Source: Vicugna vicugna (Eukaryota). From it: 64,000 nt of DNA. Numbering within the stretch: the first letter of the stretch is position 1; each line of letters starts with the position of its first letter. The translations under genes and the position numbers were made by a program. Positions 13,780 to 52,735 of this stretch are shown here, piece after piece. The notes under the pieces are model-generated. The model ran no database searches, had not been told where the DNA came from, and saw only the letters and a list, made by a program, of their open reading frames with translations. The DNA lies in the NCBI GenBank assembly GCA_013265495.1, contig MU057701.1, positions 1,054,001-1,118,000 on the forward strand, written 5' to 3'.

Positions 13780-14670
13780 TTAATAAAACTTAGAAATGGA
13801 ATCATACTGTACCAAGTGTTCAATTACTTGCTTTTTTCACTTAGTTTTTAAGTTAGTCTTTTTTAACCACAATATGGATAATACAAAATGTAAGGCAAAA
13901 ATCCTAGGCAGTAATTAAAAGAGGTCGCTTGCCTTCTATTGCCGAATAGTTAGGTTGGTTGTTTTTAGCTGTTACAAATAGTTAGTGAACATTCTTATGT
14001 GTGCATCTTTTGGTTCATATTTTAGTGTATCAACAGGATATATCCCTAGAATTGCTGAGTTAGGATGATTGTATTTTAATTGTTGTCAGATATTGCAAAA
14101 TTGCCTTCAGAAAGAATGTATTAATTTATTCATAGGCATGCACAGTAAAAAAAAAAAGTTTGTTTTTAATAACCCTGAAAATACTGAGTTTTAACAGATC
14201 TTTAAACTTTTTGCCAATTTGGTGGGTAAAAAATGTTACCATGATGTTTAAGTTTAACCTCTTTGATTCTTAGTGTGGTAATCATATTTTCATATTTTTA
14301 TTTGCCATTTCTACTTCTGTGAATTCCATGCTTATATATTTAAAAAAAATTCTATTTGGGGGGATTTTTTTGTGGGGGGAGAGGTAATTAGTTTTATTTG
14401 TTTTTAATATTTTTTAAATGGAAGTACTGGGAGTTGAACCCAGGACCTTGTGCATGCTAGGCAGACACTCTACCACTGAGCTATACCCGCCCCCTCATGC
14501 TTATATATTTTTAACCATTTTTTTAATTCTGAATTTTTTCTAAGTGCTTTGTGGAAGCTCTTTATATGTTCTGGATATTAATCCTCTGTTACATTCTGTG
14601 TGTATTTTGTTTCTGTCATTTCTCTTTTAACTTTGCTTTATGGTAACTTTTGCCATACAGAAGTTTTTTT
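13780..14670 (-). mobile_element. Old L1ME-type fragment hosting a SINE
   Basis: gtgaacattcttatgtgtgcatcttttgg...cctagaattgctgag...tttatatgttctggatattaatcc. Confidence 0.65.
14342..14495 (-). mobile_element. tRNA-Ala-derived SINE (Vic-1-like)
   Basis: gaagtactgggagttgaacccaggacc...ctctaccactgagctataccc; perfect 15-bp TSD catgcttatatattt at 14327-14341 and 14496-14510. Confidence 0.92.
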
Positions 14671-46253: not shown

Positions 46254-46362
46254 GACTTCCTGATCCATTTGCTAAGGTGGTGGTTGATGGATCTGGGCAA
46301 TGCCATTCTACAGATACTGTGAAGAATACACTTGATCCAAAGTGGAATCAGCATTATGACCT
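46254..46362 (+). CDS. SMURF2: SMURF2 exon 3 (109 nt): LPDPFAKVVVDGSGQCHSTDTVKNTLDPKWNQHYD(L), C2 domain
   Basis: tcttttttcacag|GA CTT CCT GAT...TAT GAC CT|gtacgt; phase joins exon 2 (C|GA = Arg). Confidence 0.98.
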
Positions 46363-48600: not shown

Positions 48601-48627
48601 TTGTATTGCCTCTCTTTTCTTGGGTTT

Positions 48628-48628
<1 letters not shown>

Positions 48629-48666
<38 letters not shown>

Positions 48667-48700
48667 TGTTTCTTTTTTTTTTTTTTTTTTTTCTCTTTTT
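48629..48700. repeat. Long interrupted poly(T) tract
   Basis: Directly visible; produces the poly-Phe ORF 48500..48736. Confidence 0.95.
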
Positions 48701-50169
48701 TCCCTGTTGGTTTGGTTTGGGTTCCTGTCTTTTTGATTTAAGGGGAGGCGCTTAAATGTTGATTGGAAACTCTGTACCCATAGGTAGAGCTGGTCAGCTT
48801 GCTAGGGTAATCAGGAATAACTGACATTTTCATTGCACAGAATTCTCTCCTTGGGGTTATGCTCTTGGATGCTAGAGTTCTAGGATCTCAACAATGTAAG
48901 GGTGGTAGGATGTCTCTCCACTCACTATATTAACTTCTTAATATCCTATTTTTATTATGGAATTCACCTCCTCACTCAGCTGTGCCTAGTGTCCCTGAGT
49001 AGAGAACTTTTTGGAGACTAAACCTGTGGTCTCCTGCCAGGGTTGAGGATGAGCCGGGTTGAGGATGGGATTCAAGTCTTTCCATTCTGTTTATTTTATT
49101 TTTTAAATCGCAGCATAGTGAGTTACACTTTTCATTCTTTTTAAACACTTTCACCAGTCCTTCTGCTTCATCCTCCTCATCACCATCAGAGAATACTGGG
49201 CTTACACTTTGAGAATATTTCAGGGGTTTGGTGGCAGTGGTAGTCTTGTTCCTTGTCTGTTGCTCCTTACAGACTTAGGTTTCAGTTTTCTCCAGGTTGC
49301 TAATTCAGTTATCCCATACTCTCTAAACTTCTACCATTTTGCCAACATGTGTTGTGAAATAAACATGTTAATTGTCCTGATATCCTGACTTTCCACGTTT
49401 TTAGCCTTTTAAGCTTCCTAGTCATTCTACTTCACACTTCATCAACCCCAGCTTTTCTTCTGAATGTTCCACTTGGCTTTACCTATAAAAACTCATCTTA
49501 GATCTCCCATCAAAATCTCCATGCCTGACATCTCACTACTTCTAGACCATTATTAGCTCTAAAAAACCCCTCGGGGACCCAGCTCAGCCTGATCTCTGGT
49601 CGTTTATTTGAATTTGACCTTCCAAACCACATGTAAACAAATGTTTTGTCTCTACAGCAATATAATGATACCTGGAGACAACCAAGAATCATGCTGTTGT
49701 ATATACCTCTCAGTGCTATGGCTCAGTAGCTCCAAGTTCACCTAATAAGCAAATAAGTAGAAACTAAAAAAGCAGACAGTAGAGAGAAGTGAGACTTTAT
49801 GGCTTCCCACCTCTGTCACTTACTGTGCAATCATCAGCTTGTTATCTAGCCCCTTGTGCATCAGTTTCCATTAATAACAACATCAGTAATAATGCCTACT
49901 TTAGAAGACTGATATCAAGATTAAGTGAGATAATACATGTAAAGTGCTTAGACTGGTACCTGGCATGTAATTCTCAAATATTAGATGCTTTTAGTAAATA
50001 TATTATTTTAGATCACAAATATTATAACACTTGATTTGACTTTTAGAGATTTTGAAAACACAGCTGCAGTAAGCTGTTATCTGTGTAGCTGACTAACCTG
50101 TTGAGTTCTTAGTCACCTTGTTTTAAGCCATTTCTTTTAGCTTCAGTCAGATCTAAATTCAGCCAGAGA

Positions 50170-51110
50170 TCCAACTACAATGGTGAACAAGACATAGTCC
50201 TCCAAGCTTACACCACATGGTGTATAAAGACAAGTACATAGGAAATTATAAACAGCATAATAAGACTATTGGGGAAGTATAGGGTGCTGTGGAAATATAT
50301 AGAACTTCTTTACATAAATTTAGGAATTGGAGAGAGCTTCCTAGAAAAAGTGGCATTTAGGCTTAGACCTTAAGTAGGAGTAAACTTGAGAAAGGAAAGG
50401 GTGGGAAGACTCTAAGCAAAAGAAGTCTGTGTGAAGACCCAGAGGTGAAAGAGAACATGATTCTGAAAACAGTTTAGAGAGGCAGCATTGGTGAGTTGAC
50501 ATAAGGTTAAGGGGACTGTGGTAAAAGACATGCAAATTAGAGGCAAGCAGGAGCCAGCTCATGAAGGTCCGTACTCTCTTAAAAGCTATGGGAATCAATG
50601 AAAATGAAAGGGTTTTAAGTGGGGGAAATGCTGTTACCAGATTTATATTCAAGAACGGACACTTTCTCTATAATGTAAAGAATGGCTTAGAGTGAGGCAG
50701 GAATGACAAGGAAACTAGTCTCAACACTATGGAGGAAGCCAGCAAATAGAAAATGATGTCTTTATGTTAGAAAAGTAGTATTGTGGTTGGAGAGATGTAG
50801 ACATTCTGATATTTTTAATACGGCCTTAAAACTTAAGAAAAAATGTTTTACCCTTGAAAAAAATGAATTCATACTGTATCCTGTGCTTTGCTGGATTTGT
50901 GGTTTTCCTGACCCTCACCTTAAGAATCCTTGCTTTTCTAGCCTTGCTGCTGCAGTCTTTCTCGACACAGCAGCTAGATTGATCCTGTTAAAACATATTT
51001 CAAATCTTGTTACTCTTCTGTTCCACATCCCCCATTGACTTCCTGTCTTACTTGGAGTAAAAGCCAGAGTTCATACCATAACTGACAAGACCCTTTATGA
51101 TTTGTCCCTT
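50170..51110. mobile_element. L2 fragments in both orientations
   Basis: aatggtgaacaagacatagtcc...gagagcttcctagaaaaagtggcattt; cacagcagctagattgatcctgttaaaacat. Confidence 0.65.
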
Positions 51111-52601
51111 GGGTTGATTAGGGTAGGCTAACTGGTATAATAGACAACCATACTTTTTTAGTGGCTTAGTGCAGTAAAAGTGTATTTTGAATATAAAGTC
51201 CATTTGGGAGGGAGGCGAGACATTGTGACACAGTCATTCAAGAACACAGGCTGATAGAAACTCCCCTGTTTTCAGTGTATGTTCCCAAGGTCTCTCTGGG
51301 CTTTTCGAGCCTCCCAGCAGGATGCTTAAGCCAGTGGTGGGTGGGCTGCTCTAAGGCCCAAGGGAATCAATATTTTAACATACCTGTATATCAGGCTTAC
51401 AAGTTGGGATACTGGTTTATGTGATTTTTAAAAATGTTTGGTTTGGGGTAATTTAGCTGTTTTATACTTGATTCTGATGCTAGAATTTTTGGCATATTGT
51501 ATAGTAGATACTTGACAAATTAGATCTGTTTAGTCCTGTTTAAAATTTGATGCATGCATACTAAATGATATTTTAGTCCAGATTTTTTTCATTTGTAAGC
51601 AACAAAATGAAATGCAAGTTGGCCTACTTAAAAAAAAGTATCAGCTCTCATAGCTAAAAGTCTGGGGGTGGGGGTAGGCAAACTTTAATACAGCTGGGTC
51701 CAGGGCCTCAAGTGTGTGTTCCATGTTACTTATTTAAGAGTTTTAGTCCTCACTTAAGTGGTTTAGGCTTTTTTATATACCAGGTGAATTTTTCTGATAT
51801 TACTGCTTTAATGAATGACACTTTAAGGTCAAGGTTGCTGGACCAAAAATTTGATCTCTTAGAGTGACTGAAATACAGTTAGGATTCTGCTGATGATAAT
51901 TATGTTATTTTATTACATTTTCGCATGGGATGACACCATGTTAACAATTGGCTCTGGTAGAGCTTCTACATACTTGCAGGTATATGCACAGACAAGTATA
52001 GTAACGCTTTTCCCTGCTCTGCTTGTCTGCAGGCAGTGAAGTGAAATCTGCAAGAATCCTGCTCGCTCAAGGCCTGCATACAGGAAAGAAGCAGGGGAAA
52101 AGCGTTACAATCAGCTTTTGTTCTACAGCATTTTAAAACATAACAGGTATGTCAGATTTTTGGTCTGTCAGCCTTGACAATGCCCCTTGAAAATGAACTG
52201 AGTATTTACTGAGGTAGTAGGTCATGTCATTGGAATGTATTTAAAATATGACTGATGAAAGTTTAAGATTTTTGTTGTGGTAAAGAAATGATCATACACT
52301 TCTATAGTGTCATTTGCCATTAGCTACTAAAGTAGATTTTTTTTACTAAAAGTTGTTACTTAGCCTGAGAGTGGCAGATATGCTACAGAATATATTAAAA
52401 ATTCTTTTTAGATTTTACTTTTGAGATTTTTACAAATATAAATTCAGTCCTGTGGATAGATTGAATTCAAAACATATTTTGTGTCTAGCCATACTCTAAA
52501 ATATTTGTGACTTTAGACTACAAAACAAAGGAAAGATTTTACATTAACTACCTGTAATTGTCAAGTTACTCATGCATTCATTTTGTTGTTGTTGTTTTTA
52601 G

Positions 52602-52735
52602 GTATATTGGAAAGTCTGATTCAGTTACAATCAGTGTATGGAATCACAAGAAGATCCATAAAAAACAAGGTGCTGGATTTCTTGGTTGTGTTCGTCTTCT
52701 TTCCAATGCCATCAACCGCCTCAAAGACACTGGTT
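52602..52735 (+). CDS. SMURF2: SMURF2 exon 4 (134 nt): YIGKSDSVTISVWNHKKIHKKQGAGFLGCVRLLSNAINRLKDTG, C2 domain
   Basis: gttgtttttag|G TAT ATT...ACT GGT T|gtgagt; contained in ORF 52558..52743. Confidence 0.98.

Follow-up and report, generated by a model that had tools for sequence, protein, structure and literature searches.

Does the third intron of SMURF2 hold an exon that the transcript keeps out of its own message by folding? The gene encodes an E3 ligase that acts in the TGF-beta/BMP-SMAD pathway and is sensitive to dosage. A preliminary description of the 64-kb stretch of Vicugna vicugna DNA analyzed here (the window; all coordinates are counted from its first letter) had pointed to a candidate 114-nt exon in SMURF2 intron 3 that carries an immediate stop codon and whose splice acceptor is locked in a long hairpin. 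We found that this hairpin is real and exceptional. We also found a second, outer stem, which is new beyond that description; it surrounds both the hairpin and the candidate exon. In particular, the two structures may form a two-layer RNA arrangement that silences or gates a cryptic exon with a premature termination codon, a reading to which we give somewhat less than an even chance. What the preliminary description had observed is confirmed, and its interpretation is partly supported.

A stop-containing candidate exon in SMURF2 intron 3

The + strand of the window was assigned to SMURF2 by comparing the exon 4 peptide with the solved C2 domain of that protein. The peptide was identical to residues 59-102 of 2jqz_A at 44 of 44 positions and differed from SMURF1 at four positions. 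The exons, numbered as in the preliminary description, and the candidate exon are as follows (a slash marks an exon boundary).

46254..46362, + strand: exon 3; translation LPDPFAKVVVDGSGQCHSTDTVKNTLDPKWNQHYD; 3' end ...GACCT/gtacgt
52602..52735, + strand: exon 4; part of the C2 domain
52033..52146, + strand: candidate cassette exon, 114 nt, with an immediate in-frame stop; predicted only, from splice signals and translation

The candidate exon is preceded by an AG at 52031-52032 and ends at the donor cag/GTATGT, whose GT lies at 52147-52148; the sequence, AG, donor and 114-nt length had all been given correctly. Joined to the CT at the end of exon 3, the candidate exon reads CTG CAG TGA, and translation from 52034 gives one Q and then the stop. 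The immediate stop described earlier was thus borne out, as was the TAA said to lie within the exon when the alternative AG is used (exon start 52037). The premature stop is 107 nt upstream of the 52146 junction, with many exons downstream, and it is therefore farther from that junction than the 50 nt (>50 nt) that mark a poison exon.

Splice sites were scored with crude log-odds matrices that are built from splice-site frequencies and serve for ranking within the window only. On these matrices, the candidate acceptor scored 9.80 and ranked 10th among 4496 AGs, and the donor, which had been called good, scored 5.82 and ranked 19th among 3954 GTs. The real exons had acceptor ranks of 1 (exon 3) and 230 and donor ranks of 276 (exon 3) and 212. 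The candidate was the only acceptor-donor pair of this quality at a distance of 50-250 nt on the + strand, and no such pair was present on the - strand. Additionally, a branch-like GTAAC was located 28 nt before the candidate AG, which means that the splice signals of a poison exon (AG, GT, branch point and pyrimidine tract) are all in place.

Word shares from six probable RNA runs (X15-X20) were 0.22-0.44, in line with the ratio of the contig total (405-937 million) to the genome (2027 million letters). As the shares track the contig totals, they represent background and say nothing about use of the candidate exon. The contig totals of X15-X20 correspond to 20-46% of the genome, which implies a heavy intronic or intergenic signal, or a DNA signal, in these runs.

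The candidate acceptor lies within an exceptionally stable hairpin

The inner hairpin, which contains the candidate 3' splice site, is composed of the following parts.

52001..52034, + strand: 5' arm, with the branch-like GTAAC, the pyrimidine tract and the CAG/G of the candidate exon
52035..52071, + strand: apical part, with weak small stems and one CpG at 52064
52072..52108, + strand: 3' arm, purine-rich (…ACAGGAAAGAAGCAGGGGAAAAGCGTTAC), within the candidate exon

In the minimum free energy (MFE) fold of 51996-52114, a 108-nt hairpin is formed in which 52001-52020, 52022-52026 and 52028-52034 pair with 52072-52108. The 14 perfect pairs at its base and the 7 pairs at the top of its main stem agreed with the preliminary description, and 32 of the 34 left-arm bases were paired, where about 31 had been counted. 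The whole fold consists of 42 pairs (22 GC, 18 AU and 2 GU). Its energy was -58.0 kcal/mol; shuffled sequences averaged -31.05 (standard deviation (sd) 3.79; z -7.11), and none of 200 was as good. The minus strand of the same segment gave -50.7 kcal/mol (z -6.39). The wider 171-nt stretch that had been singled out for folding gave -60.7 kcal/mol (z -4.66).

The entire window was then scanned on both strands in 120-nt segments with a step of 30. Among the resulting 4260 segments (mean -18.4, sd 6.4), the inner hairpin was the minimum, and the runner-up reached -43.5 kcal/mol. The next most stable 120-nt folds on the + strand were those of 48961-49080 (-43.5 kcal/mol), 27961-28080 (-43.4 kcal/mol) and 51271-51390 (-43.1 kcal/mol). 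The last of these is in the same intron, 430 nt 5' of the 5' arm of the outer stem and 630 nt 5' of the inner hairpin. As had been noted earlier, each arm of the hairpin keeps a CpG (52005 and 52103) in a CpG-poor intron; together with the CpG of the loop at 52064, these are three of the four CpGs in 51500-52600, and the observed/expected ratio was 0.43 in the hairpin versus 0.13 in the intron.

To describe how far the splice signals are covered, probabilities of being unpaired were taken from the partition function of 51780-52230. The values were 0.00 for the branch-like GTAAC, 0.09 for the pyrimidine tract and 0.00 for CAG/G, compared with 0.45 and 0.77 for the pyrimidine tracts of the two real exons. 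The acceptor had been placed inside the hairpin from the letters alone, and the 3' splice region as a whole is indeed predicted to be almost fully paired (0.00-0.09).

An outer stem encloses the hairpin and the candidate exon

Beyond the hairpin, two complementary arms were found in the same intron.

51822..51855, + strand: 5' arm of the outer stem, identified by inverted repeat, fold and duplex energy; its core, 51828-51854, is kept in contig L013 (see below)
52150..52190, + strand: 3' arm of the outer stem, beginning 3 nt past the candidate donor GT; its core, 52152-52178, is kept in L013

The cores (51828-51854 and 52152-52178) form an inverted repeat of 27 nt at 81% and lie 294 nt apart. 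The duplex of 51822-51855 with 52150-52190 contains 33 pairs and has an energy of -39.9 kcal/mol in RNAduplex. When 2951 pairs of 51-nt segments with the same spacing were taken from the window, their mean was -13.7 (sd 4.9) and their minimum -34.5, and none of them reached -39.9. The MFE of 51800-52200 was -135 kcal/mol (z -6.53; 0 of 100 shuffles as good), and in this fold the outer stem was formed around the inner hairpin. Because the 3' arm begins only 3 nt after the candidate donor GT, the stem would loop out the whole candidate exon. Short repeats considered as nested ones (I4 and I11) were taken as chance, since they cross rather than nest.

The outer stem also has the properties that define pairs of conserved complementary regions (PCCRs). 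Its arms lie in one gene and one intron, are separated by <10,000 nt, have a length of at least 10 nt and bind at -15 kcal/mol or lower, as computed with RNAduplex. The conservation of these intronic regions was judged on one orthologue, L013. The best hairpin, the best same-spacing duplex and the best splice-site pair of the window are all found within 370 nt.

Conservation of the outer stem

The conservation sample consisted of metagenome contigs that match a degenerate exon 4 peptide pattern, which gave 11 contigs with a Smurf exon 4. The same pattern had no match in the genome contig collection, and a degenerate pattern of the outer left arm had none in either the genome contig or the viral contig collection. 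Judging from the exon translations, four of the 11 contigs were SMURF2-type (L013, L016, L021 and L023), one was SMURF1-type (L019) and six looked invertebrate. The nucleotide identity between L013 and the window was 85% in exon 4 and 90% in exon 5, with no general similarity of the introns. We take L013 to be a SMURF2 contig of a distant, non-eutherian vertebrate.

Outside the exons, a comparison of L013 with 24 kb of the window revealed similarity only in the outer arms and an adjoining block, discounting spurious matches (low-complexity T-rich matches and one non-collinear 23-nt match with E 0.031). Positions 52130-52179 of the window matched L013 in the same orientation (78%), and positions 52148-52184 matched it inverted (86%), at the position of the left arm. 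Each of the 27-nt outer cores was identical at 22 of 27 positions in L013, with five substitutions each; in the other 10 contigs, neither arm was found at up to eight substitutions. The outer arms of L013 form a duplex of -41.8 kcal/mol, which none of 2744 same-spacing controls reached. When the 27 pairs of the outer stem were counted over both sequences, 50 of 54 cells were paired, and the fraction was 26-59% when one partner was slid by 1-3 columns. Eighteen pairs were invariant, five had a change on one side with pairing kept, and four had one unpaired cell.

The deviations from Watson-Crick pairing pointed in a single direction. All seven transition-type non-Watson-Crick cells, which belong to seven different pairs, were G-U on the sense strand and none was A-C; the chance probability of such a result is 0.008 (one-sided binomial, treating the cells as independent). 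In keeping with this, the sense duplex has a lower energy than the antisense duplex in both species, with -39.9 versus -31.0 kcal/mol in the window and -41.8 versus -29.2 kcal/mol in L013. The G-U bias and the stronger sense duplex suggest, although they do not prove, that selection has acted on the sense-strand RNA. As far as these alignments indicate, the conservation of the outer stem is the most solid of the new results.

A further region was found to be similar next to the 3' arm.

52125..52149, + strand: conserved block outside the stem, covering the last ~22 nt of the candidate exon and the donor, from the L013 alignment

The last 40 nt of the candidate exon together with the donor could be aligned with L013 (z 3.87; 0 of 300 shuffles as good). 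Between the outer arms, GTCTGCAGG at the candidate acceptor was the sole island common to L013 and the window. No pairing partner stood out for the conserved block 52118-52151, the top partners being non-homologous between the species, and the consensus pairs that RNAalifold placed outside the outer stem were discounted because the alignment is unreliable there. L013 does fold an inner stem of its own (z -2.9), in which the shared purine-rich stretch pairs with a U-rich tract; this stem is of low complexity and in another register. We also observed that, at 1617-1629 of L013 (gene orientation), the shared GTCTGCAG is followed by GTGGGA, which gives an AG/GT composite resembling a recursive splice site. 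The donor half of this composite ranked 3rd among 418, and a short UG-rich run (GGGTGTGTGCC) is located directly upstream of it.

In the other SMURF2-type contigs, L016, L021 and L023, which are teleost-like and extend 1366-1684 nt upstream of exon 4, we found neither arm and no comparable inverted repeat, a result that is limited by the short flanks. The whole 596-nt SMURF1 intron 3 of L019 contained no arm at up to eight substitutions and no comparable long stem, and the outer stem thus looks specific to SMURF2. L019 comes from the same metagenome as L013 and has compact introns, with exon 3 at 1895-2008, exon 4 at 2604-2749 and the next exon at about 2858-2930. The six remaining contigs (L014, L015, L017, L018, L020 and L022) are probably from marine invertebrates; they contain a Smurf exon of the form ...CV(R/K)I(M/L)SNAI(Q/T)(R/Q)LKDTG, and the exon boundary before (Y/S)(I/V)G is apparently kept.

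Copy number and RNA-family screens

The vicuña's own genome (2.03 Gb; 12,405 contigs) was searched with hairpin queries of 131 nt and 601 nt at E up to 10, and the locus itself was the only hit. As a positive control, a 2196-nt query of the same intron detected an element at about 50927-51079 in 18 further copies with 71-85% identity. The earlier remark that no repeat family could be recognized in the hairpin thus agrees with its single copy in the genome. An 18-nt arm pattern had one exact match in the own genome, which was the locus itself, and four matches with one mismatch, where ~3 are expected by chance. No target-site duplication was seen by eye in the flanks of the hairpin (caagtata / aatcagct), and the two-arm pattern had no match in the metagenome contigs.

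An E-value scan of 51500-52700 against Rfam returned six rows, all with E of at least 1.3 and none at its gathering score. The best rows were microRNA (miRNA) models, namely mir-3934 with 19.3 bits (gathering score 84; E 1.3) and MIR869 with 13.1 bits (gathering score 330). The Rfam screen suggested in the preliminary description therefore gave no family at the gathering score in the hairpin region. When the whole window was scanned at gathering scores, only two tRNA-like heads of short interspersed nuclear elements (SINEs) were reported. From these results, the inner hairpin is neither a detectable repeat nor a described Rfam family.

Other repeats of the window were noted along the way. The element at about 50927-51079 is an old interspersed repeat, 1 kb upstream of the inner hairpin. 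The tRNA-Ala(AGC)-like heads at 14419-14490 and 37038-37111, both on the - strand, are followed by A-rich tails and belong to tRNA-derived SINE copies, which presumably resemble camelid-type SINEs. A T-rich tract at 48615-48701 in intron 3 (72-nt T run, 85%) gave rise to spurious low-complexity BLAST matches to metagenome contigs.

Points against a gated exon and alternative explanations

Several results weigh against the reading that the two stems gate a stop-containing exon. Between the two sequences compared, no pair of the outer stem was changed on both sides. The preliminary description had looked to orthologous introns for conservation of the arms and splice sites; in the one orthologue aligned, L013, the outer stem was kept, whereas the inner left arm was not, nor were the pyrimidine tract or the GT of the donor. 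In particular, the inner left arm and the pyrimidine tract had no counterpart in the alignment, and the donor GT was lost, with cag/TT in place of cag/GT and a GTTAGT one base upstream. On the same crude matrices, whose coarseness is itself a weakness of the argument, the aligned acceptor of L013 ranked 19th of 431 and the shifted GTTAGT donor 86th of 418. The self-masking layer is thus specific to the lineage, and of the two layers only the outer one is old. The body of the candidate exon could not be aligned significantly with L013 (z 1.55, equalled by 22 of 300 shuffles), and the function of the old stem may therefore lie elsewhere than in this exon. Additionally, the candidate donor is not occluded in the predicted ensemble (probability of being unpaired, 0.50). 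Finally, ~0.6 site pairs as strong as the candidate are expected by chance per 64 kb, so that strength alone proves nothing and it is the coincidence with the two stems that counts.

Much of this evidence is shared by the main alternative, which we consider possible, although doubtful. The outer stem would be a conserved intronic RNA structure with an unrelated role, such as shortening the effective intron for the joining of exon 3 to exon 4, offering a platform to double-strand RNA-binding proteins or serving as an ADAR substrate. The inner hairpin would be a neutral, lineage-specific inverted duplication within the loop of that stem, and the 'exon' a pseudo-exon that is never used and that owes its existence to the chance position of a good donor downstream of a pyrimidine-rich arm with a terminal CAG. 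Such an explanation fits the partial conservation in L013, where the outer stem is retained but the left arm of the inner hairpin, the donor GT and the pyrimidine tract are missing; it also fits an exon body that cannot be significantly aligned, and about 0.6 site pairs expected by chance in 64 kb. The inner arms also differ at ~6 of 37 positions and by three indels, as a decaying inverted duplication would, and complementary intronic pairs are common in human genes, with 916,360 catalogued in PMC8052449. It accounts less readily for the block conserved in L013, which reaches ~25 nt past the stem over the 3' end of the exon and the donor (z 3.87), for the position of the only island between the arms, GTCTGCAGG, at the candidate acceptor, and for the coincidence of the best hairpin, the best duplex and the best site pair within 370 nt.

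The conservation of the outer arms could also reflect constraint on DNA, in which an intronic enhancer would have two binding sites in opposite orientation and the complementarity would be a by-product. Both arms contain TCAAGG(T/C)T, which we take to be close to an SF-1/LRH-1/ERR half-site, each arm retains its sequence at 22 of 27 positions, and no pair is changed on both sides. However, the complementarity spans 27-33 nt, far past a 9-bp site, and the five one-sided changes all preserve pairing. A set of mismatches in which seven of seven are sense G-U and a sense duplex that is stronger by 9-13 kcal/mol are not predicted by constraint on DNA, and we regard this explanation as improbable. 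We place about as little weight on the idea that the inner hairpin is a lineage-specific intronic miRNA precursor cut by Drosha, in which the splice-site look of the 5' arm is incidental. Precursors of miRNAs have a stem of ~35 bp with single-stranded flanks, and the 119-nt fold has ~36 stem positions (32 pairs), an apical region of roughly 35 nt and unpaired flanks. A CNNC motif (CAGC) is present 4-7 nt past the stem base, the energy of about -0.54 kcal/mol per nt is within the range of miRNA precursors, and the best Rfam rows are miRNA models. These rows, however, score far below the threshold for a described family, no basal UG was seen, the hairpin is absent from L013, and the motif positions follow general rules. 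That the hairpin is what remains of a palindromic miniature inverted-repeat transposable element appears exceedingly improbable. Its arms are similar to terminal inverted repeats and its length of about 108 nt would suit such an element, but in place of many copies there is a single copy in the 2.03-Gb genome, in a search whose positive control found 18. Matches of the arm with one mismatch were at chance level (4 versus ~3), no target-site duplication was present, and the two-arm pattern gave 0 matches in the metagenome contigs.

Proposed mechanism

A gate of two layers on the candidate exon, the reading that we tentatively prefer, would operate as follows. The first layer would be the old long-range stem of about 33 bp, which closes a loop of about 290 nt. 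The second would be the lineage-specific and very stable hairpin inside this loop, in which the 3' splice signals are paired with the purine-rich stretch of the exon itself. During transcription, the inner hairpin would form first and keep U2AF and U2 off the 3' splice site. The outer stem would form next and loop the candidate exon out, leaving exon 3 to be spliced straight to exon 4. Should a helicase, an RNA-binding protein, faster elongation or editing open one of the stems, the strong sites would be used. The candidate exon would then be included, the ribosome would reach a stop two codons past exon 3, and the transcript would be directed to nonsense-mediated decay (NMD). The analysis supports the two stems with their statistics, the conservation of the outer one, the strength and predicted occlusion of the splice sites, and the stop codon; we infer the splicing of the exon, its repression by the stems and the effect on SMURF2 dose.

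Comparison with known systems

Local hairpins that sequester a splice signal and lower exon use are known from the stem at the 5' splice site of MAPT exon 10 and from terminal stem-loop 2 (TSL2) of SMN2 exon 7. Unlike the inner hairpin, these stems are short (under 10-20 nt), belong to 5' splice sites of exons known to be alternative and have been proven by experiment. The inner hairpin has 32 pairs in its main stem and spans the branch site, the pyrimidine tract and the AG, whereas its exon is a candidate only.

For BRD2 exon 3b and BRD3 exon 5b, Petrova et al. 2024 (PMC10789245) report that blocking or mutating the flanking complementary regions raises inclusion of the poison exon and that compensatory mutations reverse this effect. 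As in those genes, the SMURF2 candidate exon contains a stop, lies in an intron of a dosage-sensitive regulator and is bracketed by complementary regions that are conserved. In contrast to BRD2 and BRD3, where the exons and the effect of the pairing are shown by experiment, the SMURF2 exon and the effect of its stem are predicted, and the 3' splice site is itself enclosed in a second, far more stable local hairpin. Petrova et al. call the BRD3 element highly conserved, whereas the candidate splice signals of SMURF2 are missing from the single distant orthologue.

The PCCRs of human genes (Kalmykova et al. 2021, PMC8052449) offer a second comparison. Exons looped out by PCCRs are included less, and the most stable class (-30 kcal/mol or lower) is strongly enriched for adenosine-to-inosine (A-to-I) editing sites. 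The outer stem is similar in that it lies in one intron, is conserved in another vertebrate and, at -39.9 kcal/mol, would belong to the most stable group. Unlike the outer stem, which was computed with RNAduplex in a camelid, the catalogue is human and was obtained with PrePH on phastCons elements. SMURF2 was absent from the supplement text of PMC8052449 that was searched, and the human counterpart of the outer stem may be listed in the large PCCR tables of that work.

The cryptic poison exons of Margasyuk et al. 2024 (PMC11632617) resemble the SMURF2 candidate as unannotated stop-containing exons in partly conserved intronic regions. They differ in that RNA-seq coverage served to define them and cycloheximide to confirm them, whereas the SMURF2 candidate is based on sequence. 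SMURF2 did not occur in the searched supplement text of PMC11632617. A full-text literature search gave no SMURF2 poison exon and no discussion of SMURF2 introns or pre-mRNA, and among the matches listed there was no SMURF2 paper on long-range structures, conserved complementary regions or unproductive splicing. A paper on the chicken long noncoding RNA SMUL (PMC7807096) was set aside, as the part of it examined concerns an upstream open reading frame and NMD and not intron 3.

Implications for SMURF2 regulation

Even if the candidate exon is never used, the outer stem is a clean intronic RNA duplex that is both very stable and conserved. If the system is functional as proposed, it would match BRD2 and BRD3 in kind. 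A wider picture, which we consider rather unlikely, is that an ancient structural splicing switch sets SMURF2 dose in vertebrates. The long-range stem would have been kept from a non-mammalian vertebrate to mammals, and the mammalian lineage would have added a lock, a hairpin of 32 pairs formed against the purine-rich enhancer of the exon. How much of the SMURF2 mRNA escapes NMD would then depend on an RNA helicase, on the speed of elongation or on A-to-I editing of the two long duplexes, which would tune TGF-beta/BMP-SMAD signaling in this way. If the stems do gate a stop-containing exon, they would provide a post-transcriptional handle on the SMURF2 level that may be reached by antisense oligonucleotides, as with BRD2 and BRD3, and the locus would be an example of a lineage in which an older structural lock has been supplemented by another.

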